Shown one piece after another: positions 9,905 to 36,330 of a stretch of DNA of 64,000 nt. The position numbers were made by a program, and so were the translations under genes. The stretch is from an uncultured Oscillospiraceae bacterium (GTDB taxonomy: Bacteria; Bacillota; Clostridia; Oscillospirales; CAG-382): the NCBI GenBank assembly GCA_964485815.1, contig CAZAJX010000005.1, positions 193 through 64,192 on the forward strand, written 5' to 3'. The notes beneath the pieces were generated by a model. That model was not told the origin of the DNA, searched no databases, and worked only from the letters and a program-made list of their open reading frames with translations. Numbering within the stretch: the stretch's first letter is position 1; the number at the start of each line of letters is the position of its first letter.

Positions 9905-9906
9905 TA

Positions 9907-15336: not shown

Positions 15337-15350
15337 TTAACCAAAATTCA

Positions 15351-16857: not shown

Positions 16858-17119
16858 AAAACACACCGTTCCGTACGTAAAATTCAGCCGTTAAGCGGCT
16901 GTAGCTCAATTATACCTTAAGCGGACGCCCAAAGCAATAACCCATTGCTTTAATCCGATTCGCCCATAGGGTGAACATAATGTTTATATTTGTGCTTTTT
17001 CACCCCGAAATGTACCGAAAACAAAGGAGTAAACAGTAAAAAAATGTTGTGTTTTGACGTAAATTATGATAACATATATGTGAATAATTATAGTTATTTA
17101 TATTAAGGAAGTCAAATTT

Positions 17120-17923: not shown

Positions 17924-19024
17924 ATGAAAATTGTTTTAGAAAACCTGACAAAAATCTTCCCCGGTCGCAACAAAAAGAAAAACGAGGAAGTTATCGCAGT
18001 CAATGACTTTACCTTCACTATTCCGGACGGAAAGCTGATCGGTCTTCTGGGCCCCTCCGGATGCGGTAAAAGTACCACGCTTTATATGATAAGCGGTCTG
18101 CAAAAGCCCACGGGCGGAAAGATATTCTTCGGGGACGATGACGTTACCCAGCTCTCTGCCGAAAACCGCGGAGTAGGTCTGGTATTCCAGAACTATGCAC
18201 TTTATCCCCACATGACCGTAAAGCAGAACATTATGTTCCCTCTCCAGAACCTCAAAGGCGCAGACAAGCTGAGCAAAGAGGAAATGGTTGAGCGCGCATA
18301 CACCGTTGCTAAGCTGGTACAGATCGATAACCTTATGGAAAGAAAGCCCTCGGAGCTTTCCGGCGGTCAGCAGCAGCGTGTCGCTATCGCCCGCGCTCTT
18401 GTAAAAATGCCTAAGGTGCTTTTGCTGGATGAGCCACTCTCCAACCTTGATGCACGTCTTCGTCTTCAGACCCGTGAAGAAATAAGACGTATTCAGAAAG
18501 AAACGGGAATTACCACCATATTCGTAACCCACGACCAGGAAGAGGCAATGAGTATATCCGACCTGATCGTAGTTATGAAGCTGGGCGTAGTTCAGCAGAT
18601 CGGCGCACCGCAAGAGGTTTACGACGATCCTATAAATCTGTTTGTAGCAAAATTCCTTGGAACTCCTCCCATTAACGTATTCAGCGGTAAGGTAGAAGGC
18701 GAAAAGCTTTATATCGGTGATGCCGCAGTGCTTGACGTTAAGGGCGTTGAAGATCAGGAAGTAACCGTTGGCGTTCGTCCCGAAGGATTTATTCTGGATA
18801 ACGATGGTCCTCTCGTATGCAATCTTAACAGCGTTGAGGTAATGGGACGCGACGTAAGCGTGGTGTCTTCCCACGAATGCGCTTTGGTTCCCAATATCCG
18901 TTCTATTATAGATGCGGACAACAAGGTTGAAGCAAAGGCAACCGTAAGCTACAGCTTAAAACCCCATAAGGTATTCCTGTTTGCAAAAGAAACCGAACAG
19001 CGCGTACGTTTTGAGGTGAAGTAA
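17924..19024 (+). CDS. ABC transporter ATP-binding protein, CUT1 (MalK/UgpC/MsmX-like) with C-terminal regulatory domain
   Basis: Walker A GPSGCGKST, signature LSGGQQQRVAIARAL, Walker B LLLDEPLSNLD. Confidence 0.92.
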   Translation: MKIVLENLTKIFPGRNKKKNEEVIAVNDFTFTIPDGKLIGLLGPSGCGKSTTLYMISGLQKPTGGKIFFGDDDVTQLSAENRGVGLVFQNYALYPHMTVKQNIMFPLQNLKGADKLSKEEMVERAYTVAKLVQIDNLMERKPSELSGGQQQRVAIARALVKMPKVLLLDEPLSNLDARLRLQTREEIRRIQKETGITTIFVTHDQEEAMSISDLIVVMKLGVVQQIGAPQEVYDDPINLFVAKFLGTPPINVFSGKVEGEKLYIGDAAVLDVKGVEDQEVTVGVRPEGFILDNDGPLVCNLNSVEVMGRDVSVVSSHECALVPNIRSIIDADNKVEAKATVSYSLKPHKVFLFAKETEQRVRFEVK

Positions 19025-19025
19025 T

Positions 19026-19967
19026 ATGGTAGAAAGCAAACACAAATGGAAAGCGTGGTTATATCTCGCTCCCGCCATTGTGCTGCTGTTGATATTTACC
19101 GTATGGCCTATAATCAACACGCTGAGAATGGCGTTTCTGGAAGGATATAACAGTATGTACGCCGCTGCCGGCGCAACGTTCAAGTTCGGTATCGGCAACT
19201 TCAAGCAGGTGCTTGCGTACAAGGACTTCCTCGTATGTCTTAAGAACACTATGCTGCTGTGCGTACTTACAGTTCCTATTTCAACCGTTCTGGCTCTGCT
19301 TATCGCCGTTGCGCTTAACTCCATAAAGCCGCTTCAGAAAATACTGCAGACCATCTTCTTCCTGCCCTACGTTACAAACTCCATCGCTATCGGTATGGTA
19401 TTTGCCGCTATGTTTAATATGGTCGGTTCTGCCTTCGGCGGTGAAAACGAGCTGATCATTACGGCAGGTATTGTAAACAATATTATCGAATTCTTCGGCG
19501 GAAGCCATATCAACTGGATAAACTCCGGCTCCACATATACCGCAAATATCGTGGTGCTGGTGGTATACACGGTATGGAATGCACTTCCCTTCAAAATACT
19601 TATTCTGCTGGGCGGACTGCAGAGTATAAACAAGCAGTATTACGATGCCGCCCGTGTAGACGGAACCAGCAGAAGCAGAGTATTTACAAGAATTACCGTT
19701 CCCCTTCTCTCACCTATGCTGGCATACGTTGTTATTACCGGCTTTATCGGCGGATTCAAGGAATATTCCAATATCGTAGGTATATTCGGCGAGGATATGG
19801 GCCCTGCAGGCGCACCTCTCAGCCTTAACACCATGGTAGGATTTATTTACGAATCGCTTGACAGCCACCAGGGACGCGCCAGCGCGGCAGCACTTATACT
19901 GTTTGCGATCATTTTTGTTGTAACCCTTATAAATCTTTGGGTCAGCAAAAAGAAAACGCATTATTAA
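19026..19967 (+). CDS. ABC transporter permease (MalF/UgpA-like)
   Basis: 6 TM segments, EAA-type loop AARVDGTSRSRVFTRITVPLL. Starts 1 nt after the ATPase stop codon. Confidence 0.9.
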   Translation: MVESKHKWKAWLYLAPAIVLLLIFTVWPIINTLRMAFLEGYNSMYAAAGATFKFGIGNFKQVLAYKDFLVCLKNTMLLCVLTVPISTVLALLIAVALNSIKPLQKILQTIFFLPYVTNSIAIGMVFAAMFNMVGSAFGGENELIITAGIVNNIIEFFGGSHINWINSGSTYTANIVVLVVYTVWNALPFKILILLGGLQSINKQYYDAARVDGTSRSRVFTRITVPLLSPMLAYVVITGFIGGFKEYSNIVGIFGEDMGPAGAPLSLNTMVGFIYESLDSHQGRASAAALILFAIIFVVTLINLWVSKKKTHY

Positions 19968-19982
19968 GGGAGGTAAAACGCT

Positions 19983-20870
19983 ATGGCTAACCTTAAAACT
20001 ATGGGCGAGAAAAACCTCCGCAGCGTATCCGCAAAGCAATTGGTGGGAAAGACGTTTTATAAGTTCCTTGTATACGCCTTTCTTATCATTATGGCGGTAA
20101 TAGTTCTGTTCCCCTTTTACTGGATGCTTATATCATCCGTAAAATCTCTTGACGAATACCGTCTTTCCGTTCCCACCCTGTTCCCCCGCGAAATACTGTG
20201 GGGCAACTACATTCAGGCGTTCAACCAAGCCACGTTGGGCAAGCTGTTTTTGAACACCCTTTACGTCGGCGTGGTATCCACCCTGCTTTCCCTCGTTATC
20301 ACCGTGCTTTCCGCTTTTGCTTTTGCACGTCTTGAGTTCAAGGGCAAAAACGCATTGTTCGCCGCACTTCTCGGCACAATGATGATCCCCGGTGAATTGT
20401 TCACCATCACCAACTACGCCACGGTAAATGCTTTCGGATGGATGAATTCCTTTACGGTATTGATCGTTCCCTTCCTCGTAAGCGTATTTTACATTTATCT
20501 GCTGCGTCAGAACTTTATGCAGATACCCGATGAGCTTTATCTTGCCGCAAAGGTTGACGGTACAAGCGACCTTAAGTACCTTTGCAAGGTAATGATCCCC
20601 TTGGCGCTTCCCACGCTTATATCCATTACCATTCTTAAGATGATGGGTGCGTGGAACTCTTACATCTGGCCCAGACTGGTTGCAAACGATGCGGACCATC
20701 AGCTTATTACCAACGGTCTGCGCAATGCATTTACCGATGCCAGCGGCGACGTAAATATTCCCGTTCAGATGGCGGCGGTCGCCATAGTATCTTTCCCGCT
20801 GTTCCTGGTGTTCGTATTCCTTCGTAAGTATATTATGAAGGGCGTATCAAGAAGCGGTATCAAAGGATAA
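19983..20870 (+). CDS. ABC transporter permease (MalG/UgpE-like)
   Basis: EAA loop AAKVDGTSDLKYLCKVMIPLA, GGAGG RBS. Confidence 0.9.
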   Translation: MANLKTMGEKNLRSVSAKQLVGKTFYKFLVYAFLIIMAVIVLFPFYWMLISSVKSLDEYRLSVPTLFPREILWGNYIQAFNQATLGKLFLNTLYVGVVSTLLSLVITVLSAFAFARLEFKGKNALFAALLGTMMIPGELFTITNYATVNAFGWMNSFTVLIVPFLVSVFYIYLLRQNFMQIPDELYLAAKVDGTSDLKYLCKVMIPLALPTLISITILKMMGAWNSYIWPRLVANDADHQLITNGLRNAFTDASGDVNIPVQMAAVAIVSFPLFLVFVFLRKYIMKGVSRSGIKG

Positions 20871-20919
20871 CAGCCAATCCATTTTGGCATCACATATCAA
20901 AAGATCAAAGGAGAAAAAA

Positions 20920-22350
20920 ATGAAAGCAAACAGAATTATATCTTTCATTCTCGTTGCGGTTATGTGCTTGGGCGTTTTCGCTCTCACAGGCTGTAACAAC
21001 ACTTCGGTCGCTTCCGACCTCGTTATCCCCGAAAACGGATTTGACACCACAACTCCCGTAACCATTACCTTCTATCACACCATGGGCGCAAATCTTCGTG
21101 ACGTTCTCGATTATTATATCGTAGAATTCAACAAGCTTTACCCCAACATCACCGTTCAGCACGAGCAGGTTGGCTCTTACGATGACGTTCGTGATCAGAT
21201 AAAGACCGAGATCACCGTAGGCAACCAGCCCAATATCGCTTACTGCTATCCCGACCACGTTGCGCTTTACAATATGGCGCAGGCTGTTCAGACTCTTGAC
21301 GTGCTGATCGAAAGCGAGATCGAGGTCACCAGAGCAGACGGAACTACCGAAATACTCGGTCTTACCGATGCACAGAAGGACGATTTTATTAAGGGTTATT
21401 ACGAAGAAGGTCAGCAGTTCGGCGACGGACTTATGTACACCCTTCCCCTTTCCAAGTCTACCGAAGTTCTTTACTACAACAAGACATTCTTTAACAAGCA
21501 CGGTCTTACCGTTCCCACCACTTGGGACGAAATGGAAAAGCTTTGCGAAGAGATCAAAAAGATCGATCCCGACTGTATCCCTCTCGGCTATGACTCCGAA
21601 TCCAACTGGTTTATCACTCTTTGCGAGCAGAGCGGCTCTCCCTACACCAGCGCAGGCGATGATCACTTCCTCTTTGACCACCAGACCAACTACGATTTCG
21701 TTGCACGCTTCAGAACCTGGTATCAGAAGGGCTACGTAACCACTCAGGAGCTTTCCGGCGGTTACACCTCCGAACTGTTCACCAAGGCTGAATCCGAAGC
21801 AGGTAACAGCTATATGTCTATCGGCTCTTCCGCAGGTGCAACTCACCAGCGTCCCGATAAGGTTGACGAAGCTTATCCCTTTGAAGTAGGCATCGCTACC
21901 ATTCCCCAGATCAATCCCGAAGATCCCAAGGTTATCTCTCAGGGTCCTTCTCTCTGTATCTTCAAGAAGGCTGATCCTCAGGAAGTTATCGCATCCTGGC
22001 TGTTTGTAAAGTATCTTACCACCACCGTTGAATTCCAGGCTGAATTCTCTATGGCTTCCGGTTACGTTCCCGTAATCAAATCCGTAGGCGAAAACGCTAT
22101 TTACAAGAACGAATTCCTTGATAAGGCTGACGGCGGCGACTTTATTTCCGCACTCAGCGCAAAGATCTGTCTGGAGCAGGAAGACGCTTACTACACCTCT
22201 CCCGCATTCAACGGCTCCTCCACCGCCCGTGACCAGGTCGGTCTGCTTATGCAGAAATGCTTATCCGCAAACTGGGGCAGCGATGTGGAAGAACAGATAA
22301 AGAAAGCCTTTGAAGATGCTATTGCCGAATGTGAATATCAGGCAGGTTAA
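20920..22350 (+). CDS. extracellular solute-binding lipoprotein (SBP family 1), substrate unknown
   Basis: Lipobox LTGC. ATG at 20920 after AAAGGAGA. Family-1 SBP-like sequence. Confidence 0.88.
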   Translation: MKANRIISFILVAVMCLGVFALTGCNNTSVASDLVIPENGFDTTTPVTITFYHTMGANLRDVLDYYIVEFNKLYPNITVQHEQVGSYDDVRDQIKTEITVGNQPNIAYCYPDHVALYNMAQAVQTLDVLIESEIEVTRADGTTEILGLTDAQKDDFIKGYYEEGQQFGDGLMYTLPLSKSTEVLYYNKTFFNKHGLTVPTTWDEMEKLCEEIKKIDPDCIPLGYDSESNWFITLCEQSGSPYTSAGDDHFLFDHQTNYDFVARFRTWYQKGYVTTQELSGGYTSELFTKAESEAGNSYMSIGSSAGATHQRPDKVDEAYPFEVGIATIPQINPEDPKVISQGPSLCIFKKADPQEVIASWLFVKYLTTTVEFQAEFSMASGYVPVIKSVGENAIYKNEFLDKADGGDFISALSAKICLEQEDAYYTSPAFNGSSTARDQVGLLMQKCLSANWGSDVEEQIKKAFEDAIAECEYQAG

Positions 22351-22359
22351 TGAACTTAT

Positions 22360-23691: not shown

Positions 23692-23711
23692 TTTTGAAAG
23701 GAAAGCATATA

Positions 23712-26012
23712 ATGAAGAAATTTTTAGCAATCCTGTTGGCAGTTCTTATGTGCTGCGGTATTATGGCTTCCTGCTCGGACAAGACCGAAGGTCCCGACTT
23801 GGCAGATGCGCTTTCTTACCTCAAGAGCCTTTACAAGGACAGCGCAAAGGAAACTCCCACCGATTACGACGTTGTAGGTAAGATACTTATTAACAACACC
23901 GTAGAATTCACGGTTACCTGGGAAAGCGATAACGAAAACGTTACTGTAAAAGAAAGCAGCAGAAACGGATTTTTCACTATCGACGTTCCCGATAAGACCG
24001 AAGCGGAAATTCCTTACGTTCTCACCGCAACCATTAAGGACGCAGACGGCAACACCGAAGCCACTACCTTTGAAAAGGTCGTTCCCATTGTTGATAATAC
24101 CGCAGTAGTAAGCGCACCCGAGGAAGGCGTTGAATACGCACTTTATCTCGTTCACACCTCTCTGGGCAAAACCCTTTACGCTACTCACGAGCTCCAGAAC
24201 AACAAATTTATCGTTACCACCACCGATCCCAAGGAAGCTCCCGCTTTCTTTGCAGAGGTTGTTGAAGGCGGCTACAAGTTCTATACTATGATAGATGACG
24301 TTAAGAACTACGTTACCGCTTCCGTTGTAAAGACCGAAGAAGGAAATTACAGCAAGTATATCAATTACGGCACAGAAGGCTCCGTATGGTATTACAACAC
24401 CGAATGCAACGCTTGGATGACTATGGTTGAGGGCGGCGAATACGTAATGGGTACTTACAGCTCTTATACCACAATTTGTATTTCCGAATCCAGCTATATA
24501 ACTCCCGAAAACAGCGGTGTATCCCAGTTCCCCGCAGTTCTTATTAAGAAAGAAGCTGCAGAGAATATGGGCCCCGCCGAAGAAGTTGAGATTTACGAAA
24601 CCGCGCAGGATATCGTAAACGAGGCTTACAAGCTTGAAGCAGGCGCATACCTTTCCGGCGGACACAAGTACACCCTCACCGGTGTGATCACCAAGGTGGA
24701 CAGCGCGTACAGCGCACAGTACGGCAACGTAACCGTAACCATCGTTGTTGACGGTATGGACGATAAGCCCATCCAGTGCTTCCGTGCCTCCGGCGACGGC
24801 GCAGATATTATCGACGTTGGCAATACCATTACCGTAACCGGTCCTATCGTTAACTATGCAAAGAAGGATGATAGCGGAAATATAACCTCTACCATCATCG
24901 AAATGGAATATCCTACACTTGATTCTCACGATGCAGTAGCTTCCGATGATCCCGATGATACCTCCAAGCCCGACGGAGATACCTCCGAGCCCGAAAACAA
25001 CGATACCCCTTCCGAAGCACCCCAGAACAAGACTATAAAGGATATACTGGGCATCAAAGAAGGCAGCGAGCCTTCCTATGAAGTTATTGTAACCGGCGTT
25101 GTTGATGAGATCACCAATACCACTTGGGGCAATATGTATATCAAGGATGCAGACGGCAACAAGCTTCTTATCTACGGTCTGTACGATGCAAACGGCAACA
25201 CCAGATACGATGCTATGGCTAAAAAGCCCGCAGTAGGCGATACCGTTACCGTTCAGGCTCCCGTTTCTTTCTTTAACGGACAGGTACAGCTTAAGAACGC
25301 AAAGCTTAAAGACCTCACTTCCGGCGGCGGTTCTACTACCGATCCCGGCGATGAACCCGGCGATAATCCCAATGATACACCTGCAACCGGCAACACCACG
25401 CCTATTGCAGATATTCTTAAGTATACCGAAGGCAATGCACCTACTACCGAAATTTTCGTAAGCGGCACCGTTGTTGAAGTAGCCAGCACCACCTGGGGCA
25501 ACATTTACATAACCGACGGTAAAGGCAACAACCTCTACCTTTACGGCACTTACGATGAAGATGGCAACAGATACGATGCCTTTGAAGTAAAGCCCACAAA
25601 GGGTGATATAATCAAGGTAAAGGGCACTATCTCCTTCTTCAACGGTGTTCCCCAGATAAAGAACGCTGTTCTCGTAGAGCACACCGTAAAGGAATATGAA
25701 CCCGGCGAGCCCCAGAACGCTACTATCGCAGAAGTTCTCGCGCTTACCGATTTTATTGATCATCCCGTTATCGTAACCGGTACTATCACCAAAACCTACG
25801 GTGAGAATTGGGCTACGTACGGTAACTTCTATATTACCGACGGAAACGGCAACGAGCTTCTCATCTACGGTTTGTACGATGAGAACAACACCAGATACGA
25901 TAAGATGGACGTTCAGCTTGAGGTTGGCGACACTATCACCGTTCAGAGCGAAGTATCCTTCTATAATAAGGTTCCTCAGCTTAAGAACGCCACTCTGCTT
26001 GAAGTAGAATAA
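23712..26012 (+). CDS. surface lipoprotein with four tandem OB-fold-like (YhcR-type) modules, candidate nucleic-acid binding
   Basis: Lipobox MASC. Three about 95-aa repeats of TWGN-YI-D--GN-L-IYG-YD...FFNG-PQ-KNA-L plus one divergent copy. Confidence 0.72.
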   Translation: MKKFLAILLAVLMCCGIMASCSDKTEGPDLADALSYLKSLYKDSAKETPTDYDVVGKILINNTVEFTVTWESDNENVTVKESSRNGFFTIDVPDKTEAEIPYVLTATIKDADGNTEATTFEKVVPIVDNTAVVSAPEEGVEYALYLVHTSLGKTLYATHELQNNKFIVTTTDPKEAPAFFAEVVEGGYKFYTMIDDVKNYVTASVVKTEEGNYSKYINYGTEGSVWYYNTECNAWMTMVEGGEYVMGTYSSYTTICISESSYITPENSGVSQFPAVLIKKEAAENMGPAEEVEIYETAQDIVNEAYKLEAGAYLSGGHKYTLTGVITKVDSAYSAQYGNVTVTIVVDGMDDKPIQCFRASGDGADIIDVGNTITVTGPIVNYAKKDDSGNITSTIIEMEYPTLDSHDAVASDDPDDTSKPDGDTSEPENNDTPSEAPQNKTIKDILGIKEGSEPSYEVIVTGVVDEITNTTWGNMYIKDADGNKLLIYGLYDANGNTRYDAMAKKPAVGDTVTVQAPVSFFNGQVQLKNAKLKDLTSGGGSTTDPGDEPGDNPNDTPATGNTTPIADILKYTEGNAPTTEIFVSGTVVEVASTTWGNIYITDGKGNNLYLYGTYDEDGNRYDAFEVKPTKGDIIKVKGTISFFNGVPQIKNAVLVEHTVKEYEPGEPQNATIAEVLALTDFIDHPVIVTGTITKTYGENWATYGNFYITDGNGNELLIYGLYDENNTRYDKMDVQLEVGDTITVQSEVSFYNKVPQLKNATLLEVE
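25032..26009 (+). repeat. three tandem intragenic repeats (about 285 nt each, joined by G/D/P/T-rich linkers)
   Basis: Units start near 25032, 25401 and 25722. Roughly half the residues are identical, judged by eye. Confidence 0.7.
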
Positions 26013-26033
26013 AAACCATTCAAATAATAACAG

Positions 26034-26059
26034 CCCCGCATATCGCGGGGTTGTTTTTT
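26034..26059 (+). terminator. rho-independent terminator of the ABC/nuclease operon
   Basis: ccccgc/gcgggg stem with 5-nt loop followed by ttgtttttt. Confidence 0.7.
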
Positions 26060-26067
26060 GCAATTAC

Positions 26068-26096
26068 TTGACGAAACGGAAATAATGATATACAAT
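26068..26096 (+). promoter_or_regulatory. putative promoter (TTGACG-17-TACAAT) of the RNase gene
   Basis: ttgacg at 26068-26073, 17-nt spacer, tacaat at 26091-26096. Confidence 0.5.
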
Positions 26097-26121
26097 ATAA
26101 AGCAGAGGTGAGTGTATTTTT

Positions 26122-27288: not shown

Positions 27289-27296
27289 AAAGCATC

Positions 27297-27429
27297 CCCC
27301 ACAAATGCTGTTTGCATTTGCGGGGACCCCGAAAATAAAAAAAAGTACCCCAAGAAAACTATCGTTTTCTTGGGGACCCCGAAAATAAAAAATCACCCCA
27401 AGAAGATTTTTACTTCTTGGGGTTTTTGG
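27297..27429. repeat. three tandem hairpins with a 50-bp period. Two carry the GGGGACCCCGAAAATAAAAAA tail and the last acts as a bidirectional terminator
   Basis: Stems at 27297-27308/27314-27325, 27348-27359/27364-27375 and 27396-27405/27413-27422. The tail is repeated at 27322 and 27372. Confidence 0.8.
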
Positions 27430-27430
27430 T

Positions 27431-28144
27431 TTATTTAAGGCGTTCAAGAACCTTATGGTCGGTTTTATCGTAAGTGAGAGGCGTAACGGAGATATAACCG
27501 CTTAAAACCGCGTCTATATCCACGTCAAGGCTATCGAATTCCCGCATTACGGGACCGCCGAACTGCTGATATTCGTCCCCTTCCATATGAACGAACTCAT
27601 CTGTATAAAACATTTGTCCCATTCGGGTAAGGCGTATTCCCTTTGCGGGAGAATGGGGAATGTTTACGTTAAAAAGATTACCGTAGCTGAACAGAGATCT
27701 TGCAAAGAAAAACTGCAGGATCATATCAAAATACTTTGGCGCATCCATAAGGATTTCAAAATCCGTAGATACGGCAACGCCTTTTATACCGTAGCGGCTT
27801 CCTTCAAGTACTGCGCCCACGGTGCCGGAATAAGATACGTCCCAGCCAAGATTATATCCTCTGTTAACTCCCGAAATGAGGAAATCGTATTTTCCCTTAA
27901 GTCCCGTAACGGCGAACCGCACGCAGTCTGCGGGGGTAGATGCCACGCTGTAGCACTCTACGCCGTCAACAAGATTCACTTTTTTAACCTCTATACGGTT
28001 GCGGAAATCTATGCTCTGGCTTTTTGCGCTTTGCTCTGTTTTGGGTGCGACAAGAGTTACCTCCCCGAACTGCTTTGCCCAATTTGCCAAGACGGGCAGT
28101 ATGGGAGATTCGATTCCGTCATCGTTGGTTATAAGAATTCTCAT
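27431..28144 (-). CDS. surE: 5'/3'-nucleotidase SurE
   Basis: MRILITNDDG N-terminus. ATGA overlap with the upstream stop codon (alternative ATG at 28150). Confidence 0.9.
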   Translation of the reverse strand: MRILITNDDGIESPILPVLANWAKQFGEVTLVAPKTEQSAKSQSIDFRNRIEVKKVNLVDGVECYSVASTPADCVRFAVTGLKGKYDFLISGVNRGYNLGWDVSYSGTVGAVLEGSRYGIKGVAVSTDFEILMDAPKYFDMILQFFFARSLFSYGNLFNVNIPHSPAKGIRLTRMGQMFYTDEFVHMEGDEYQQFGGPVMREFDSLDVDIDAVLSGYISVTPLTYDKTDHKVLERLK

Positions 28145-29118
28145 AGCCATCCCTCGTTTTCTTGTTTGTATTTTTTGAGCAACTCGTCCGCATCCTTAAC
28201 AAGACGACGCATTTGCGCGGTATTTTTCACGTTTGCTCCTGCGGCGCAGGCGTGTCCGCCGCCGCCGTATTTTTCCGCCAGCTCGCTTACCGTAACGAAA
28301 CGGGAGCGAAGACGGACGCGGATATTATCCTCGGTTTCAATAAACGCCAGCCATATAAGGCTGTTTTTAATATTATCGATATATCCTACGCAAGCGGACG
28401 CATCCTCAATGGAAAGTCCGTATTTTTCGCGGGTCTTTTTATCAACGTAAATATAAACCACGCCGTTTTCGGATATTTTCATCTTATCGTATACATAAGA
28501 ACGGAATTTAAGGGTGTGGTATTCCTTCATATACAGATTTGCATACAGGGTATCAAGGTCTATACCAAGGTCTATAAGCATTGCCGCAAGACGAAGTGTA
28601 TCTCCCGAAACGGAGCGATACTTAAACCGTCCCGAATCCGTAACCATTCCGCAGTAGATGTAAGTGGCCGCCTGAGCGTCTATCTTCAATTCGTCCTTGA
28701 AGACACTGTAAAACTCCGCGATCATTTCGCAGGAGGAAGAGTAATCCTCCATTATCCATTCCACGTCCCCGTAAGATTCTACGGGAATGTGGTGGTCTAT
28801 TTTTACGATACTCTTGCACAGCGAAAACTTTTTGTTGGAGATACGCGCCGCAGTTGCGGTATCCACCACTATTCCCAAGGCGTCTTTATACATTTCATCG
28901 GGAATAGGCTCGTCCTCGCCGCCCAAAAAGGCAAGGTGGGACGAATAATCGGAATTGAGAAGATATATCTCCTTTTCGGGAAAAGACAATTTAAGTATTC
29001 TGTGCAATCCCTTGGAAGAGCCGATAGCATCTCCATCCGGCATCTTGTGGCGGAATATTATTATGCGGTCGTACGCCTTTATGGTGTCAAGCACCGCTTT
29101 CATTTGTTCATACTTCAT
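28141..29118 (-). CDS. DHH/DHHA1 phosphoesterase (NrnA-like nanoRNase / pAp phosphatase)
   Basis: PDGDAIGS, IDHH and GGGGHACAAG motifs. Confidence 0.85.
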   Translation of the reverse strand: MKYEQMKAVLDTIKAYDRIIIFRHKMPDGDAIGSSKGLHRILKLSFPEKEIYLLNSDYSSHLAFLGGEDEPIPDEMYKDALGIVVDTATAARISNKKFSLCKSIVKIDHHIPVESYGDVEWIMEDYSSSCEMIAEFYSVFKDELKIDAQAATYIYCGMVTDSGRFKYRSVSGDTLRLAAMLIDLGIDLDTLYANLYMKEYHTLKFRSYVYDKMKISENGVVYIYVDKKTREKYGLSIEDASACVGYIDNIKNSLIWLAFIETEDNIRVRLRSRFVTVSELAEKYGGGGHACAAGANVKNTAQMRRLVKDADELLKKYKQENEGWL

Positions 29119-29119
29119 A

Positions 29120-30052
29120 TTATTCTCCCATAGCGTTAAGATCTGCCAAAAGCTGCATAGCCTCGTCTTTATCCTTTAAGGTTGCGCCGCTTGCCTTTTG
29201 GTGTCCGCCGCCGCCGTATTTAACGGCAATAGGATTGATATTATATTTATTTGAGCGTATTTCACACAAAACGCCGTTTTCGGTTTCCGTGAAATTCACC
29301 CAGCTATGTATACCTTTAATATCCGACATAACGCCAACCATTCCGCGGGATACGGTAAAGGTATCCGCACCGCAGGAGGCAACTTCATCAAGCGTATTGT
29401 ATATATACCCTACTCCGTTTGCGGTTACGTTGATCTTCAACGTAAAGCGGGCTCGCAGTTGAACGGATGAAAGCTCGTCCGAATACAGATTGCTGTATAT
29501 ATCGTTGGCATCGAATCCTTTGGAAATGAGGAATGACGCCATTTCAAAGGTCTGGGCATTGGTGCTGTCATATCTGAATCTGCCCGAATCGGTGATCATA
29601 CCCGTATACAAGGCTTTTGCCGCTTGAGAAGAAACCTGCAGACCTGCGGTTTTCGCCATACACGCAATAAGTCCGCAGCAGCTTTCGAAGGAAGTATCAA
29701 CCACCTCTTCGTCCGCAAACTTTTGCACGAATATATGATGGTCCAGCCGTGCGGTGGCGGCGGCTTTGGAATAGCGGTCATCGCTGACAAGGGCAGGCGT
29801 AGCAGAATCAAGAATGATAGCAAGGGCGTTTTCGTACGCGCTGTCATCTATGGTATCCATATCCCCGTCCGCAATAAAGGAATAACGGGGTGTCATATCG
29901 CCTACAACGTAAACCTGCTTTTCGGGATAGGTTTCTTTTATAATATATTTAAGTCCCATCTGGCTGCCCAAAGCATCACCGTCAGGCTTTGAATGGCGGT
30001 GAATAATAACAGTGGGATATTTTTCTATAAGTTGGATTATTTTTTGAAACAT
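29120..30052 (-). CDS. DHH/DHHA1 phosphoesterase, second divergent paralogue
   Basis: PDGDALGS, LDHH and GGGGHQKASG motifs. ATG at 30052 (TTG at 30073 is possible). 1-nt gap to the next gene. Confidence 0.85.
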   Translation of the reverse strand: MFQKIIQLIEKYPTVIIHRHSKPDGDALGSQMGLKYIIKETYPEKQVYVVGDMTPRYSFIADGDMDTIDDSAYENALAIILDSATPALVSDDRYSKAAATARLDHHIFVQKFADEEVVDTSFESCCGLIACMAKTAGLQVSSQAAKALYTGMITDSGRFRYDSTNAQTFEMASFLISKGFDANDIYSNLYSDELSSVQLRARFTLKINVTANGVGYIYNTLDEVASCGADTFTVSRGMVGVMSDIKGIHSWVNFTETENGVLCEIRSNKYNINPIAVKYGGGGHQKASGATLKDKDEAMQLLADLNAMGE

Positions 30053-30080
30053 AAAAAGTGTTTTTCCTTTCAAGGCAGGG

Positions 30081-31283
30081 TTATTTATCGAAATATCCTT
30101 TGTATTCTACCTGCAACTTGCTTTCGGGGAACAGATAGTGATGTAGGCTTATGAAATAATCGTCAGTCATACTGGCGATATAATCCACTATGATCTGATG
30201 ATGATCGGAATTCTCATAGGGAATATCCCGCTTGTGGCGGTAAGAAGAATTAACGTAATCTATATGGTGGGTAAATACGGGGGACAAGCGATTATTTTGC
30301 TTGAGATCGTCAAGAAGCTGACAGTATATTTCCTCCATCATAGGCTTTACGCTGGCTTCGAACTTATCGTCCAGAGCGGCGCGGTTATATATAAGCTTAT
30401 AGTTTTCCATTTTGTACTTTCTCAGAGCGTTGAAATGCTCCTCGTCCAGCTTTATATATGGCTTTCCGTAGCTGTTTTCAATAACGTTTACCACGAGATT
30501 ATTGATTATCTCGGAATTTGCAGAGCCGATACAATCGTCAAAGGGTATATCCTCTGCGGGATTGATTATTCTTGCATCCTGTCTGTCCTTACCAAGATAT
30601 GCGATAATGTCCGAAAGACGCACCACCGCGCCCTCTAACGTTGAAGGCATTATTGATTTTGCAACGGCGGGGTCTGTATAGCATTTTTCAATAATGTCAT
30701 CAAACTCATCAAAACCGTTCACAGGCTGAGGATAATATTCCTCGCACTCGATCTCACCGTTGTGGGCGGCTATACCGTTAAGTGTCTGCAGGCTGAGGTT
30801 AAGAGGGAATATTCCGTCCAGCACGCGGACGGAGTGTATGTTGTGGTAAAAGTGCCGTCCCGTATGACCAAAAGACAGTTCATCAAGAAATTTTTCTCCC
30901 GTATGACCGAAAGGTGTATGACCGATATCATGTCCCAGAGAGATAGCTTCGATAAGATCAAGATTAAGATGAAGCGCCGCGCCGATAGTGCGGGAAATTC
31001 TGGAAACCAACTGAACGTGCAGACTTCTGCGGGTGATATCATCGTTTTTCCAAAGAGAGAACACCTGAGTCTTATCGGTATAACGGTTGTAATAGGGACA
31101 ATACATTATACGGTCGATATCGTGAGCGAAGGTAGGACGCCAAACCGTAGGCACATCTCGATCTCGTTTTTGACGCAACACAACGTCCTTGTTTTTAAAA
31201 GCGGTATCCGGATAATTTCCGGTACGGTTGGCTTCTTCTATTTTTGCGGAAACCTCTGCTGAGAGGACCTCATATTTAGACAT
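30081..31283 (-). CDS. HD-domain dNTP triphosphohydrolase-like protein (dGTPase family)
   Basis: LHVQLVSRISRTIG...SLGHDIGHTPFGHTGE motif, GGGAGG RBS. Confidence 0.8.
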   Translation of the reverse strand: MSKYEVLSAEVSAKIEEANRTGNYPDTAFKNKDVVLRQKRDRDVPTVWRPTFAHDIDRIMYCPYYNRYTDKTQVFSLWKNDDITRRSLHVQLVSRISRTIGAALHLNLDLIEAISLGHDIGHTPFGHTGEKFLDELSFGHTGRHFYHNIHSVRVLDGIFPLNLSLQTLNGIAAHNGEIECEEYYPQPVNGFDEFDDIIEKCYTDPAVAKSIMPSTLEGAVVRLSDIIAYLGKDRQDARIINPAEDIPFDDCIGSANSEIINNLVVNVIENSYGKPYIKLDEEHFNALRKYKMENYKLIYNRAALDDKFEASVKPMMEEIYCQLLDDLKQNNRLSPVFTHHIDYVNSSYRHKRDIPYENSDHHQIIVDYIASMTDDYFISLHHYLFPESKLQVEYKGYFDK

Positions 31284-31314
31284 TTGTTTACCTCCCTTTT
31301 TGGTTAAAATGGGG

Positions 31315-32625
31315 TTATATGCCGATCACCTTATATATAAGCGGCTCTTCTTCGGGTTTTACATTTCCAAAGGTTAACGCGGCCACAAGGGTACGCTCCG
31401 ATACCTCCAACGTATGCTTCCGTTCGGTATACAGCCGTGCGATAATATCGCCCTTTTTCACCTTGTCGCCCGTCTTTTTATAAAGCATTATTCCGGCTTT
31501 GGGATCAATAACATCGTCTGCTTTTTCTCTGCCTGCGCCCAAAAGCATTGCGGCAGTTCCGATCATCTCCGCGTTACAGCCCACAATATATCCGTCCGTT
31601 TCCGAAATAATATCACGGGTATATTCTGACTGACCCATAAGGGACGGATTGCGGGCGTATTCTATATTTCCGCCCTGACAGGATATCCAACGGCAAAACC
31701 GTTCAAATGCTTCACCGCTTTCAAGAACGGAAAGAACGTTGCTTTTGGCTTCTTCTATGCCGCACTTGCAGGAAAAGCTTACCATAAGAGATGCAAGAGT
31801 AACGCAAATTTCACGCAGATCATCAGGTCCGCCGCCCTTCAAAACCTCCACAGCCTCGCTTACCTCAAGCAGATTGCCGATAGCGTTGCCCAAAGGTCTG
31901 TTCATATCCGTAATAACGGCGGCAATGTTTCTGCCGTGGGATACGCCTATTTTTACCATCATCTCCGCAAGACGGATGGCGTCTGCCTTTTCACGCATAA
32001 AGGCACCGCTTCCGCATTTAACGTCCAGAACGATAGAACGTGTGCCTGCGGCGAGCTTTTTGCTCATTATAGAAGAGGCGATGAGCGGTATGGTATCCAC
32101 CGTAGCGGTAACGTCCCGCAGAGCGTATATTTTTTTATCCGCAGGGGCGAGATTTCCGCTTTGACCAATAACGGCAAGCCCTATATCCTGCACCTGATCA
32201 ATAAACTGCTTGGGAGAAAGGGTGGTATGAAATCCATCAAAGGATTCCAGTTTATCCACCGTTCCGCCGGTGTGACCCAATCCCCGACCGCTCATTTTTG
32301 CAACTATGCCTCCGCAAGCGGCAACGATAGGTGCGACGATAAGGGTGGTTTTATCCCCTACTCCGCCGGTGGAATGCTTATCCACACTGCGGTCGCCGAA
32401 AACGGAAAGATCTACCGTGTCGCCCGAAAGTGCCATTGCCTCCGTGAGGTCGAATATTTCTTCGTCCGTCATTGAATTGAAGTACACCGCCATCAGCCAA
32501 GCGGACATCTGGTAATCGGGAATATCACCCCGAGTATATGTGTTAACCATTTCGAAAAGCTCATCACGGGTAAGAGATAAGCCTCTCTTTTTCTTTTCGA
32601 TAAGGTCGTACATTCTGATAGCCAT
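31315..32625 (-). CDS. pdp: pyrimidine-nucleoside phosphorylase
   Basis: 436 aa, HSTGGVGDK motif, typical N-terminus MRMYDLIEKKKRG. Confidence 0.92.
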   Translation of the reverse strand: MAIRMYDLIEKKKRGLSLTRDELFEMVNTYTRGDIPDYQMSAWLMAVYFNSMTDEEIFDLTEAMALSGDTVDLSVFGDRSVDKHSTGGVGDKTTLIVAPIVAACGGIVAKMSGRGLGHTGGTVDKLESFDGFHTTLSPKQFIDQVQDIGLAVIGQSGNLAPADKKIYALRDVTATVDTIPLIASSIMSKKLAAGTRSIVLDVKCGSGAFMREKADAIRLAEMMVKIGVSHGRNIAAVITDMNRPLGNAIGNLLEVSEAVEVLKGGGPDDLREICVTLASLMVSFSCKCGIEEAKSNVLSVLESGEAFERFCRWISCQGGNIEYARNPSLMGQSEYTRDIISETDGYIVGCNAEMIGTAAMLLGAGREKADDVIDPKAGIMLYKKTGDKVKKGDIIARLYTERKHTLEVSERTLVAALTFGNVKPEEEPLIYKVIGI

Positions 32626-32640
32626 AGTTACTCCTCTCTT

Positions 32641-33057
32641 TTAATCCACGTTATCTTTTGTAAACGCTTCGGGAAGCAGGTTTTCAAGAGTTATTATCTT
32701 CTCTGTTTTTCCGTCAAACAAAATAATTTCAAAATCCTTCCCGCAAAACTCCGCCATTACCTGCCTGCATACTCCGCAGGGCGCGCAAAACTCGGTTACG
32801 CCATTTTCCTGCTTTCCGCCCACAACCGCAATAGCCTTAAAGCGGTTTTCTCCGTTATGAACGGCGGTGAAAAACGCCACTCTCTCTGCGCAAACTGTGG
32901 GAGAAAACGAGGCGGATTCAATATTTGCGCCCGTATATACCTTTCCCTCGACAGTAAGCAACGCCGCGCCTACGGCAAAAGACGAATACGGGCTGTAGCT
33001 TTTTTCTCTTGCCGAGATAGCCTTTTGAATTAAATCTTTATATACTGTGTTTTCCAT
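32641..33057 (-). CDS. cdd: cytidine deaminase (homotetrameric type)
   Basis: CAERVA and PCGVCRQ zinc motifs. ATG at 33057, 1 nt after the deoB stop. The upstream 61 codons of the ORF were rejected. Confidence 0.9.
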   Translation of the reverse strand: MENTVYKDLIQKAISAREKSYSPYSSFAVGAALLTVEGKVYTGANIESASFSPTVCAERVAFFTAVHNGENRFKAIAVVGGKQENGVTEFCAPCGVCRQVMAEFCGKDFEIILFDGKTEKIITLENLLPEAFTKDNVD

Positions 33058-33058
33058 A

Positions 33059-34180
33059 TTATTCACCAAGCAGATATTTGATAACGGTATCCCGTATAAC
33101 CGTAAATCCTTCGATAACGCCTTTGTTTTCGGGAACAATTCTGTTACCGTATACCAGCAGAGGAACGTATTCACGGGTGTGGTCTGTGCTGTTATCGGAA
33201 GGATCGCATCCGTGGTCCGCGGTGATGATAAGCATATCATCCTTTTGCATATTCTTCATAAATCCGCCGAGCCAAATATCAAATTCGTTTAACGCACGTG
33301 CATATCCTACGGCATCCTGACGATGTCCGTAAAGCATATCGAAATCCACGAGGTTTACAAAGCACAGCCCCGAAAAGTCTTTTTCGGCGATTTGGGATGT
33401 GATCTCCATCCCCTCTTTATTGCTGTGAGTGGGATAGGTTTCGGTTATGCCCGAGCCTGCGAAAATATCGTTTATCTTGCCTACGCCGATAACGTCAAAT
33501 CCCCTTTCTTTAAGGGTTTCGTTCATATTGCCGTGAGGAGGCTTAAGGGAAAAGTCCCGTCTGTTTGCGGTTCTGGTGTATGCGGAAGAAGTACCCGTAA
33601 ACGGACGCGCAATAACCCGTCCCACGCCGTGGTCGCCCGTTAAAATTTCACGGGCAATTCCGCAAATGCGGTACAGTTCTGAAAGAGGAACCATTTCCTC
33701 GTGGGCGGCTATCTGGAACACGCTGTCTGCCGAGGTGTAGACGATAAGCTTTCCCGTACGCAAATGCTCATCCCCGTAATCACGGACAACCTCCGTGCCC
33801 GAATAAGGCTTGTTGCAAAGGGTGCCGTAGCCTGTTTTTTCCTCAAATTCCTTTATAACGCTTGCGGGAAATCCATCGGGATAGGTGGGCATAGCTTTAT
33901 CCGAAACTATACCTGCTATCTCCCAATGTCCCGTGGTGGTGTCCTTGCCCTTGCTGAGTTCCTTAAGCTTTGCCACGGAAGCAAGAGGCGAAACCACGGA
34001 AGGAATGCAGTCCACTCCGTCGATATTTCCAAGACCGAGGGACGTAAGATTGGGTATATTCAGTATTCCCGTGTTCCAAACGCTTAAAACGGTGTTTGCG
34101 CCCGCATCGCCGAAATCGGCGGCATCAGGGGCGGCGCCTATTCCAAAAGAATCCAGAACGATTAAAAATACACGTTTCAT
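33059..34180 (-). CDS. deoB: phosphopentomutase
   Basis: MKRVFLIVLDSFGIG N-terminus. The about 373-aa length fits the family. Confidence 0.92.
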   Translation of the reverse strand: MKRVFLIVLDSFGIGAAPDAADFGDAGANTVLSVWNTGILNIPNLTSLGLGNIDGVDCIPSVVSPLASVAKLKELSKGKDTTTGHWEIAGIVSDKAMPTYPDGFPASVIKEFEEKTGYGTLCNKPYSGTEVVRDYGDEHLRTGKLIVYTSADSVFQIAAHEEMVPLSELYRICGIAREILTGDHGVGRVIARPFTGTSSAYTRTANRRDFSLKPPHGNMNETLKERGFDVIGVGKINDIFAGSGITETYPTHSNKEGMEITSQIAEKDFSGLCFVNLVDFDMLYGHRQDAVGYARALNEFDIWLGGFMKNMQKDDMLIITADHGCDPSDNSTDHTREYVPLLVYGNRIVPENKGVIEGFTVIRDTVIKYLLGE

Positions 34181-34189
34181 TTATTTTCC

Positions 34190-34906
34190 TCAAAGTGAAG
34201 TTGCAACGTTAAGAGCAATTGTCATCATATCCGTAAAAGTGCTTTGTCTTGCATCCGCATCCAACGCCTCGCCACGGAGAATATGATCGGAAACAGTACA
34301 AATTGCAAGAGCGCGCTTGCCTGCGGCGGCAGCGTTCATATACAAAGCGGCGGCTTCCATTTCCACGCCGAGAACACCCATTTTATACCATCCATCGTTA
34401 AACGCGGGGTTTGCGTTATAGAACACATCGGAAGAAAGCATATTTCCAACGTGGTATCTTACACCCAGCTTTTCCGCTTCTTCAACGGTTTTACGTAAAA
34501 GAGAATAATCTGCAATAGGTGCAAAGTTACCGCCAAGACCGTATTGCTCCTGATAAGAGGAGTTGGTGCAAGCACCCATACCGATAATAATATCACGAAG
34601 TTGAACCTGATCTGCAAGCCCTCCTGCTGAGCCGATACGGATAATATTCTCCACACCGAAAAAGTTGAACAGCTCGTAGGAATAAATGCCGATAGAGGGC
34701 ATTCCCATACCGCTTGCCATTACAGACACGGGCACGCCGTTGTATGTACCGGTATATCCTTGAATTCCTCTTACGTTGTTTACCAGTACGGCGTTATCCA
34801 AAAAGGTTTCCGCAACGAATTTGGAGCGCAGGGGATCGCCGGGCATAAGCACGGTCTTTGCGAAATCTGCCGAGGTTGCTTTAATGTGAGGTGTATGCTG
34901 ACTCAT
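34190..34906 (-). CDS. deoD: purine nucleoside phosphorylase, DeoD type
   Basis: TPHI...VLMPGDPLR...GMGMPSIGIYSYEL. ATG at 34906 after AGGAGA. Confidence 0.92.
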   Translation of the reverse strand: MSQHTPHIKATSADFAKTVLMPGDPLRSKFVAETFLDNAVLVNNVRGIQGYTGTYNGVPVSVMASGMGMPSIGIYSYELFNFFGVENIIRIGSAGGLADQVQLRDIIIGMGACTNSSYQEQYGLGGNFAPIADYSLLRKTVEEAEKLGVRYHVGNMLSSDVFYNANPAFNDGWYKMGVLGVEMEAAALYMNAAAAGKRALAICTVSDHILRGEALDADARQSTFTDMMTIALNVATSL

Positions 34907-34925
34907 AATACATATCTCCTTTTTA

Positions 34926-35594
34926 TCAATAACTGCCGTCATCGGCAAGATTTTTTGCTATTTTTACAATTCGGCTGGTACCAAGACGGTCAGCCCCCAA
35001 GGCGATAAACTCCTCTGCATCCTCCAGCGAGGATATGCCGCCTGCCGCCTTTATGCGCACACCTTTTCCGATATGCTTTGCAAACAGCGCCACGTCCTCC
35101 TTGGTGGCACCGCCCTTGGAAAAGCCGGTAGAGGTTTTGATATAATCTGCGCCGGATTCGGTAACGATATGGCACATTTTTATCTTTTCTTCCTCTGTAA
35201 GAAGACAGGTTTCGATAATTACCTTTAATATCTTATCTCCGCACGTCTTTTTAAGCTCGGTAAGCTCAAAGAGGATATCATCGTATCTTTGGGATTTCAA
35301 AAATCCGATATTTATAACCGTATCTATTTCGTCTGCGCCGTTTGAAAGAGCGTCTGCACACTCAAATACCTTTGCCGCCGTGGTGGTATAACCGTTGGGG
35401 AATCCGATAACGGTGCATATTTTTAATTTTTCGCCCACATATTCCTTTGCCTGCTTAACGTATGCGGCGGGAATACAAACGGAGGCAGTGGAATATTTAA
35501 TCCCGTCATCGCAGACAGCTTTTATCTCTTCCCAAGTCGCTGTCTGGGCAAGGAGGGTGTGATCGCATTTTTTAAGTATATCCGAAAGCTGCAT
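34926..35594 (-). CDS. deoC: deoxyribose-phosphate aldolase
   Basis: CDHTLL..., KVIIET and DYIKTSTGF (Schiff-base Lys) motifs. Confidence 0.92.
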
Positions 35595-35595
35595 A

Positions 35596-36183
35596 TTATT
35601 TAACCTCTTTTTGATTTTTTATTTTTTCTTTCCAGCATTTATGGCACATTGCGATATATCTGTCGTTACTGCCGAGGAGCACCTGCTCACCCTCGGTAAC
35701 GATATTATTATTCTCATCAATACGGGCGTTTATTATCGCCTTTGAGCCGCAGGAGCATACCGTCTTGATCTCCGCAATGGAATCCGCCAGCTCGAAAAGG
35801 CGTTTACTTCCCGTAAAAAGGTGTGCAAGAAAATCCCCGCGCAAGCCGTAACACATAACCGCTACGTTACATTCGTCTACAATTCGCCTTAATTGGTCGA
35901 TATGCGCTTCGGTGAAAAACTGACATTCATCGGAAATGACTACGTCCGCATCGGAATGATATTTTATAAAAAGCTCGTATATATCGTCATCTTTGGAAAT
36001 AGTTTCACATTCCGCTTCAAGTCCTATGCGGGAGCGGACAAGATTTTTTCCGTCCCTATCATCAATATCCGGCTTGATAAGCCAGACACGCATATTACGC
36101 TCCTCGTAATTGAATTTCGCTATAAGCGCCTGCGCTGTTTTGGATGAGCCCATCGCTCCGTACTTATAATATAACTTAGCCAT
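35596..36183 (-). CDS. tdk: thymidine kinase
   Basis: P-loop GAMGSSKT, C-terminal zinc cysteines CSCG...CHKC. ATG at 36183. The upstream 53 codons of the ORF were rejected. Confidence 0.9.
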
Positions 36184-36330
36184 TCGTTTTCCGACCGCCT
36201 TTCGCATATTCCATTTAATTATAACATATTTCATAGCAAAATAAAAGAGAAAAATTTCCGCTTTATGCAGAAATAACAAATAAAAAAAGGGAATACTTTT
36301 TTTAAATAAGCAAGAAAGGATACACAGATA

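Follow-up and report, generated by a model that had tools for sequence, protein, structure and literature searches.

In what form do environmental DNA and RNA enter a cell that feeds on them: as nucleosides stripped of phosphate outside, or as phosphorylated fragments that are taken apart in the cytoplasm? The question is raised by a gene locus of an uncultured Oscillospiraceae bacterium, carried on a stretch of 64,000 nucleotides of contig CAZAJX010000005.1 (assembly GCA_964485815.1) that we call the window and to which coordinates refer unless another contig is named. An original prediction had taken positions 17924-36183, where a plus-strand operon for surface nucleases and an ATP-binding cassette (ABC) importer converges on a minus-strand operon for nucleotide catabolism, to be one functional unit for using nucleic acids as a nutrient. 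The idea of a scavenging unit holds; what crosses the membrane was left unmentioned. We find the locus to be coherent and real, with a conserved core that is wider on the RDD side and narrower on the deo side than was proposed, and we infer that its importer takes up phosphorylated di- or oligonucleotides. It seems rather probable to us that the locus is a nucleic-acid utilisation unit of gut or rumen Clostridia and works by the overall mechanism described below.

The conserved core of the locus

The genes are listed here with the profile matches that identify them. A second contig of the same species, L084 (184.8 kb), has an identical gene arrangement and guided the choice of two start codons.

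17120..17872 (+): RDD-family membrane protein (PF06271, E=3.9e-15), which opens the plus-strand operon
17924..19024 (+): ABC ATPase of the MalK/UgpC type (ABC_tran, E=2.5e-37; C-terminal OB_MalK/CysA_C matches)
19026..19967 (+): ABC permease 1, UgpA/MalF-like (BPD_transp_1; top NCBIfam match UgpA)
19983..20870 (+): ABC permease 2, UgpE-like (BPD_transp_1; top NCBIfam match UgpE, E=1.8e-31)
20884..22350 (+): substrate-binding lipoprotein (SBP_bac_8, SBP_bac_1; lipobox LTGC) of the CUT1 branch that includes UgpB and the proteins binding glycerophosphocholine (GPC) and uridylyl-3'-5'-phosphoguanosine (UpG, or U3G); start probably at 20920, as called in L084
22360..23691 (+): staphylococcal nuclease (SNase) lipoprotein (PF00565; lipobox LAAC) with two C-terminal domains resembling the oligonucleotide/oligosaccharide-binding (OB) fold
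23694..26012 (+): OB-array lipoprotein of 772 aa (lipobox MASC), with a beta-rich N-terminal half followed by four OB-fold domains; start probably at 23712, as called in L084
26122..27288 (+): putative ribonuclease (RNase) lipoprotein with Big_2, a middle region that is conserved and a barnase-like domain at the C-terminus (lipobox LCSC)
27431..28150 (-): SurE 5'/3'-nucleotidase (PF01975, E=4.4e-46; TIGR00087, 154.5 bits against a cutoff of 135.1)
28141..29118 (-): NrnA-like phosphodiesterase a (DHH, DHHA1; Bacillus subtilis NrnA 5j21, E=1.1e-62)
29120..30073 (-): NrnA-like phosphodiesterase b (DHH, DHHA1; NCBIfam NrnA, E=6.2e-68); start probably at 30052
30081..31283 (-): HD protein resembling deoxynucleoside triphosphate (dNTP) triphosphohydrolases (HD, HD_assoc; NCBIfam dGTPase models under their cutoffs)
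31315..32625 (-): pyrimidine-nucleoside phosphorylase Pdp (TIGR02644, 560 bits against 409)
32641..33057 (-): cytidine deaminase Cdd, 138 aa (TIGR01354, 141 bits against 114; coordinates corrected)
33059..34180 (-): phosphopentomutase DeoB (NF003766, 503 bits against 256)
34190..34906 (-): DeoD-type purine-nucleoside phosphorylase (NF004489, 337 bits against 230; coordinates corrected)
34926..35594 (-): deoxyribose-phosphate aldolase DeoC (TIGR00126, 226 bits against 117)
35596..36183 (-): thymidine kinase Tdk, which opens the minus-strand operon (NF003300, 231.5 bits against 195)

An open reading frame (ORF) map together with Pfam and NCBIfam profile searches recovered all 17 genes of the original prediction, each in the family assigned to it, and seven minus-strand proteins (SurE, Pdp, Cdd, DeoB, DeoD, DeoC and Tdk) score above the curated NCBIfam cutoffs. 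The seven plus-strand genes that had been listed are in place, and the RDD gene that had been left out is to be added ahead of them, separated from the ATPase gene by a terminator-free gap of 51 nt.

We compared the window proteins by tblastn with 83 loci from related species, of which 66 have at least 6 kb of upstream sequence and 55 at least 8.5 kb downstream and could be scored on the respective side. Upstream of the SNase gene, all 66 loci have the genes for RDD protein, ATPase, both permeases and binding protein, and in 69 of 70 an OB-protein homologue comes next. Of the 55 loci, 42 have a SurE-NrnA-NrnA triad within 10 kb downstream; 16 of the 55 have the HD gene, 12 at least one deo or tdk gene and 10 the Big_2/RNase gene. 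The HD, deo/tdk and RNase genes are lineage-specific additions, and the claim that the 18-kb block forms one unit stands for a smaller set of genes: importer, surface proteins and NrnA-NrnA-SurE triad are the conserved functional unit, and the window holds its most extended form. The conservation of the block in the 83 loci means that the arrangement is not due to chance, and the genes outside it vary from locus to locus. The two halves do co-occur in relatives as expected, generally with only the SurE/NrnA part of the minus-strand operon.

The triad is spread over the tree of the SNase protein with scattered absences, and the deo/tdk genes are concentrated in the clade around the window. It is mostly convergent with the plus-strand operon and is co-directional in three loci (L045, L057 and L083). 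In L057, the genes for the binding protein, SNase, OB protein, NrnA, NrnA and SurE follow each other on one strand (8596-15338, +), with 33 nt between the OB and NrnA genes and a 4-nt overlap of the two NrnA genes, as in a single predicted importer-nuclease-NrnA-SurE operon. In L045 (8536-17301, +), co-directional NrnA, NrnA and SurE genes stand directly 3' of the OB-lipoprotein gene. Loci that lack the triad showed no replacement nucleotidase module; downstream they have unrelated Trk, Mg-chelatase-like, ABC transporter (for branched-chain amino acids) and histidine kinase genes. Unbiased ORF clustering in the 83 loci gave no further widespread partner, and several apparent clusters were antisense shadow ORFs.

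These linkages bear on the purpose of the surface nucleases, which might instead act in competition, biofilm remodelling or host interaction (on the extracellular DNA matrix or neutrophil extracellular traps) and lie beside importer and catabolic genes incidentally. Homologous SNase lipoproteins of mycoplasmas have indeed been described as cytotoxic or virulence factors. However, the nuclease gene is linked to the importer operon universally (66/66) and to NrnA/SurE genes frequently, and the carriers are commensal gut and rumen metagenome-assembled genomes (MAGs). We regard incidental adjacency as very improbable.

The importer and its binding protein

The composition is that of a CUT1 importer, with a MalK-type ATPase, two permeases of the BPD_transp_1 family and a binding protein of the SBP_bac_1 family encoded in one operon. 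The top named NCBIfam matches of the four ABC parts are UgpC, UgpA, UgpE and UgpB, all under their equivalog cutoffs (the ATPase included), and therefore the importer is not a Ugp orthologue. The binding protein also has a weak NCBIfam match to the mycoplasma P68 lipoprotein family (E=4.4e-5). Its top matches in the PDB are the 7c0x/7c0f series (E=2.7e-22), which are probably the UpG-binding protein of Thermus thermophilus and are the closest solved relatives, followed by the E. coli and mycobacterial UgpB proteins (1.9e-10).

According to PMC12718374, which cites Chandravanshi et al. (FEBS J 2021), a CUT1 protein of T. thermophilus binds UpG and is grouped with UgpB and the GPC-binding protein of Mycobacterium tuberculosis. 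The same paper states that two Tyr and two Ser residues coordinate the phosphate in the UpG- and GPC-binding proteins and in UgpB. We aligned the window protein with eleven orthologues, the Thermus sequence and E. coli UgpB. Y99, S192, S315/S316 and Y394 of the window protein align with Y42, S121, S247/S248 and Y323 of UgpB and with Y58, S129, T242/S243 and Y316 of the Thermus protein, and this phosphate tetrad is invariant in 80 orthologues, except that Y99 is replaced by Trp in five. The residues with which UgpB holds glycerol (the Trp169/Trp172 clamp, Glu66 and Arg374) are not kept, the aligned residues being S/A/G, F, P and G. The Thermus protein shares the Tyr/Ser/Ser/Tyr phosphate positions, and the Trp clamp is missing in both. 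Residues at the positions mutated in deposited Thermus variants are identical or similar here: a Ser is retained, and among the ligand contacts T242 is Ser, N83 is Asp and Y248 is His or Tyr.

A Ugp-like importer with a conserved phosphate tetrad could also serve phosphate scavenging, with glycerophosphodiesters or other organophosphates as cargo, nucleases that mainly free phosphate esters and phosphorus as the goal. Ugp proteins are the top named matches of all four ABC parts, and SurE and NrnA release phosphate or phosphomonoesters, as this explanation would have it. It does not account for the loss of the UgpB glycerol residues (W169, E66, R374) or for a binding protein that is closer to the presumed UpG-binding protein than to UgpB. 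The locus has no Pst, PhoU or UgpQ gene, the partners it keeps throughout are a nuclease and an OB protein of nucleic-acid-binding type, and in this lineage it is joined to nucleoside catabolism and tdk. We judge phosphate scavenging of this kind to be quite unlikely. The E. coli ugpBAEC-ugpQ system remains a useful parallel, as a phosphodiester is imported there and then hydrolysed by a cytoplasmic phosphodiesterase, with the difference that the cytoplasmic diesterases here are of the NrnA type, not UgpQ.

The RDD protein has about three hydrophobic segments, and R12, D19, an NGQTxGKK motif and H212-D213 are conserved among 68 sequences. Heading the importer operon in 66/66 loci, it may provide RDD proteins with a consistent functional context for the first time.

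Surface nucleases and OB-array lipoprotein

The lipoboxes seen in the translations at the end of signal peptides (LTGC, LAAC, MASC and LCSC) mark the binding protein, the SNase, the OB protein and the RNase as predicted surface lipoproteins. PF00565 matches the SNase with 39 bits against a cutoff of 21 (E=1.2e-9), and thermonucleases in the PDB are matched at E ~1e-4. Residues D66, R85, T91, E93 and R136 correspond to D21, R35, T41, E43 and R87 of Staphylococcus aureus nuclease, where R35, E43 and R87 are catalytic and D21 and T41 are Ca2+ ligands; they are invariant in the family, and nuclease activity is likely. Weak Pfam OB matches lie at residues 226-294 and 395-438. The surface nuclease YhcR of B. 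subtilis resembles this protein in having OB folds fused to SNase domains; it is sugar-nonspecific and yields 3'-nucleotides. YhcR differs in being sortase-anchored, in having a 5'-nucleotidase domain of its own and in not being known to share an operon with an ABC importer.

The OB repeats of the neighbouring lipoprotein, for which Pfam matches are weak, are confirmed as an OB array by an AlphaFold2 model with a pLDDT of 83.9. Its top Foldseek matches are arrays that bind single-stranded DNA (ssDNA): the CST-ssDNA complex (6w6w), Teb1 AB (3u58; probability 1.0, E=3.5e-5), BRCA2-ssDNA, Cdc13 and POT1. If it works as a nucleic-acid-binding lipoprotein in a surface complex with the SNase, it would be a counterpart of the glycan-binding surface proteins in polysaccharide utilisation loci.

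The assignment of the third surface protein to the barnase family is more qualified. All 34 sequences share E277, R304, R308 and H335-Y336, which fall on E73, R83, R87 and H102-Y103 of barnase; the alignment has z=3.4, a score reached by 1 of 300 shuffles. The AlphaFold2 model of the C-terminal domain (pLDDT 50-80) has an order of helices and strands compatible with barnase. PF00545 matches 29 of the 34 family members at E <= 0.01 (best 3.6e-4), none above the cutoff, and the window protein scores 18.9 bits against 24 (E=0.0023). Structure and profile searches do not retrieve barnase: Foldseek with the full-length model returned Ig-like domains only and no barnase, and a hidden Markov model (HMM) of the family found only Big_2 relatives and no barnase among PDB sequences. 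With hhalign, 22 columns aligned to barnase at a probability of 4%, placing residues 208-229 on barnase helix 1 only. Since the PF00545 match is under the cutoff, we call the domain probably barnase-type, with insertions, and not established. Between it and Big_2, residues ~120-200 form two helices and then four strands with no family match; A134, S136, E139, R143, P156, P160 and others are invariant in this middle region.

Cytoplasmic enzymes and the proposed pathway

SurE has the NDDG and SGVNRGYN motifs and lacks a signal peptide, as expected of a cytoplasmic protein. Both NrnA copies contain DGD, DHH and GGGH motifs and score 246 and 229 bits with the NCBIfam NrnA model, whose cutoff is 350. 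They too are without a signal peptide, as is the HD protein. The top PDB match of the latter is 2dqb (E=6.7e-26), deposited as a putative deoxyguanosinetriphosphate triphosphohydrolase. As an aside on this gene, a role as an anti-phage dGTPase was considered and rejected, because the corresponding model scores 71 bits where its cutoff is 400, far below the housekeeping-type dGTPase-like models.

In the mechanism that we propose, DNA or RNA would be held at the membrane by the OB-array lipoprotein together with the SNase protein's OB domains, and the SNase domain would cut both to short 3'-phosphorylated mono-, di- and oligonucleotides, the established products of SNase chemistry. In this lineage, the barnase-like lipoprotein may also cut RNA. 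Judged by its homology and gene context, the binding lipoprotein of the phosphodiester branch of CUT1 would capture di- or short oligonucleotides, and the Ugp-like importer would bring them in alongside the conserved RDD membrane protein. Inside, two NrnA-type phosphodiesterases would degrade the fragments to mononucleotides and SurE would strip 5' or 3' phosphates; Cdd, Pdp and DeoD would then free bases and (deoxy)ribose-1-phosphate, and DeoB and DeoC would pass the sugar into central metabolism. Tdk would salvage thymidine, and the HD protein may trim deoxynucleotide pools. The identities of the cytoplasmic enzymes are clear, and the order of their steps is the one we infer.

The phosphate tetrad, the relatives of the binding protein and the linkage, at operon level, with cytoplasmic NrnA and SurE together suggest import of phosphorylated di- or oligonucleotides. 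The pathway as drawn needs such import, since NrnA, SurE and the HD protein have no signal peptides. A more specific combination, in which a dedicated di-/oligonucleotide importer works with an obligatory RDD partner, an SNase-OB surface complex and an NrnA pair specialised for 5'-OH/3'-phosphate ends, is put forward tentatively, as a possibility that we hold somewhat short of belief.

The same scavenging locus could instead break nucleic acids down completely outside the cell and import unphosphorylated nucleosides or (deoxy)ribose, with NrnA and SurE as inherited housekeeping neighbours. CUT1 systems are mostly sugar carriers, the deo enzymes use nucleosides, the triad is absent within 10 kb in 13 of the 55 neighbourhoods, and Wasmund et al. 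inferred transport of nucleosides or nucleobases for the ABC systems of Izemoplasma loci (PMC8289736). For the production of nucleosides outside the cell, however, the locus offers neither a secreted nucleotidase nor a secreted phosphatase, and SurE, NrnA and the HD protein lack signal peptides. The binding protein is one of a phosphate-ester branch and keeps the phosphate tetrad, the NrnA-NrnA-SurE genes share the importer operon in L057, and their linkage persists while other flanking genes change. Nucleoside import seems unlikely to us on these grounds; if nucleosides were the substrate, the locus would be an ordinary though unusually complete cluster for salvage and catabolism.

Several further points weigh against the uptake of phosphorylated oligonucleotides as we propose it. 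The binding protein and the Thermus protein share about one quarter of their residues, as judged by eye over ~310 positions. In the PDB the molecule name of 7c0x/7c0f is 'sugar-binding protein' only, and their identity with the dinucleotide-binding protein of Chandravanshi et al. 2021 is presumed. The tetrad, as read from alignment, does not single out one phosphodiester, and glycerophosphodiesters or mononucleotides would fit as well. In the SNase domain, five of the six catalytic and Ca2+-binding residues are kept and the sixth differs, the Ca2+-ligand Asp40 being replaced by N90, an Asn that is invariant throughout the family. Fragments made by SNase end in 5'-OH and 3'-phosphate and are not the textbook substrate of NrnA. 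Finally, a shared control element was not found: the three promoter regions have only AT-rich 8-9-mers in common, at chance level, and an Rfam search (E <= 1) detected no riboswitch or leader over 16000-37000.

Transcription units and regulation

The following signals and regulator genes were found in and around the locus.

26034-26050 (+): terminator-like hairpin with T-run, 3' of the OB gene, by consensus match only
26068-26096 (+): promoter-like TTGACG-17-TACAAT, upstream of the RNase gene, by consensus match only
27296-27423 (in the 142-nt convergent gap): three tandem G+C-rich terminator-like hairpins, each with a T-run, the last one bidirectional
~36218-36226 (-): extended -10 element (TGTTATAAT), upstream of tdk, read off the sequence
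16234-16866 (-): HTH_3 regulator with tetratricopeptide repeats (TPR), divergent from the RDD gene
9907-11100 (-): HTH_3+TPR regulator, paralogue of the preceding
60029-61549 (+): third HTH_3 regulator, with no TPR detected

The hairpins after the OB gene and in the convergent gap appear to fit the proposed transcription units. The hairpin with its T-run, followed by TTGACG-17-TACAAT, supports the suggestion that the RNase gene is separately promoted. On the minus strand, gaps of 31 nt or less had been predicted; with real start codons they measure 1, 19, 9, 1, 15, 31, 7-28 and 1 nt, plus one overlap of 4-10 nt. The hairpins of the convergent gap (CCCCAAGAA... and CCCCGCAAA...) are separated by a repeated 'GACCCCGAAAATAAAAAA' spacer and resemble a small duplicated terminator unit. 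The HTH_3+TPR gene at 16234-16866 was considered as the regulator of the locus and is probably not, since it stands beside the locus only in L084, of the same species, and has two paralogues elsewhere in the window.

Comparison with described loci

The original prediction knew of no described locus that joins these parts, which is too strong in view of the loci reported in PMC8289736, PMC8397711, PMC10470597 and PMC4045577. One of these, with the same surface logic, is a nuclease-ABC operon of mycoplasmas, known from M. bovis, M. gallisepticum (MslA, MGA_0676 and ABC genes) and M. hyopneumoniae (mhp379) (PMC4045577, PMC12115388). In M. bovis, MBOVPG45_0307-0311 is a putative nucleotide transporter operon with 'oligosaccharide' ABC parts, a nuclease-family lipoprotein and the lipoprotein P81, whose M. 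gallisepticum homologue MslA binds DNA in both single- and double-stranded form, and deoC and pdp lie a few kb away, a parallel to the deo genes here (PMC4045577). A review likewise describes operons of mycoplasma nuclease and ABC genes. These operons share with the window locus an SNase-type lipoprotein nuclease (Ca2+-dependent in mycoplasmas), a CUT1-type ABC transporter and the proposed delivery of nucleic-acid fragments for import, and have a DNA-binding surface lipoprotein. Compared by description, the window locus differs from them in its canonical Ugp-like binding protein, its RDD protein and an OB array in place of MslA/P81. It is also tightly linked to two NrnA genes and SurE and, in this lineage, to a full deo/tdk operon and the gene for a barnase-like RNase, and its host is a walled Clostridia bacterium.

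A second group is formed by the 'DNA-degradation loci' of Candidatus Izemoplasmatales (Wasmund et al. 2021, PMC8289736; Zheng et al. 2021, PMC8397711) and the locus of Hujiaoplasma nucleasis, which has an extracellular RNase, NrnA and ABC transporters (PMC10470597). DNA or RNA induces such loci in two cultured wall-less bacteria (Zheng et al.; PMC8397711, PMC10470597). They have in common with the window locus secreted nucleases near an ABC transporter, small-oligonucleotide nucleases or NrnA, and phosphohydrolases, and they have been read as units that exploit external DNA or RNA. They also hold Pst phosphate transporters and an EddB or lamin-tail-domain (LTD) nuclease, whereas Pfam scans of the window locus and its flanks revealed no Pst transporter and no LTD or EddB-type nuclease. 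In contrast, and again by description, the window locus has a Ugp-like importer with the phosphate tetrad, together with the RDD protein, the lipoprotein with an OB array and fused deo/tdk genes.

New relative to the described loci are the Ugp-like binding protein with its tetrad, the OB-array lipoprotein, the RDD protein and the tandem NrnA-SurE module, together with, in this lineage, the fusion to a complete deo/tdk operon and the barnase-like RNase. The locus thus appears, by this comparison, to be a fuller version of loci described in wall-less bacteria. A literature search of incomplete coverage found no prior account of this locus family in gut Clostridia.

Other features of the window

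Several long ORFs run antisense to genes of the locus:

23724-26063 (-)
22507-23730 (-)
17936-18874 (-)
20905-21846 (-)
28162-29133 (+)

One of them, of 779 aa, mirrors the entire 772-aa OB gene, and such ORFs recur in related loci as 'shadow' clusters. They are probably an effect of codon usage and can mislead gene callers.

Further genes and elements lie outside the locus:

1142-4899 (-), possibly to ~9914: T2SSE ATPase, T2SSF platform protein, prepilin peptidase (A24) and unannotated ORFs
11604-13064 (-): DHHW/AlgX-like (SGNH-type) protein
47467-48744 (-): second DHHW/AlgX-like (SGNH-type) protein
49640-51193: CotH
51232-54321: DUF4855/F5_F8_type_C/Big_9 protein of 1029 aa
61615-61870 (+): T-box leader (95.1 bits, above the gathering score)
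61993-63210: pyridoxal phosphate-dependent enzyme (PALP), downstream of the T-box leader

The T2SSE/T2SSF/A24 set, ~8 kb upstream of the nucleic-acid locus, resembles a type IV pilus or competence-pseudopilus cluster. The DHHW/AlgX-like proteins, with CotH and the DUF4855 protein encoded nearby, suggest surface-polymer modification.

Distribution and significance

The SNase lipoprotein has thousands of close relatives in sequence searches, the named ones being labelled 'Clostridia bacterium' or 'Ruminococcaceae/Oscillospiraceae bacterium'. When one genome per species was scanned, at least 583 species genomes encoded a relative. The best 80 of these at least 583 carriers are mainly MAGs from gut and rumen that belong to Oscillospiraceae, Faecousia, Acutalibacteraceae and Christensenellales, and a few of the 80 are labelled Lachnospiraceae, Bacilli, Mollicutes or Sphaerochaetaceae.

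DNA and RNA from diet, host and microbes are plentiful in the gut and rumen, and the anaerobes that consume them, and the chemical form in which they do so, are poorly known. The locus family, with its at least 583 species genomes, is a concrete candidate for the uptake of phosphorylated oligonucleotides through a canonical ABC importer. It may give tandem NrnA paralogues, too, their first functional context, and its binding protein could help to settle the cargo of the similar-looking, nuclease-linked ABC transporter of mycoplasmas. If the proposed uptake is true, hundreds of species of gut and rumen Clostridia would import phosphorylated nucleic-acid fragments intact, which would challenge the common assumption that extracellular nucleotides must be dephosphorylated before they enter the cell.

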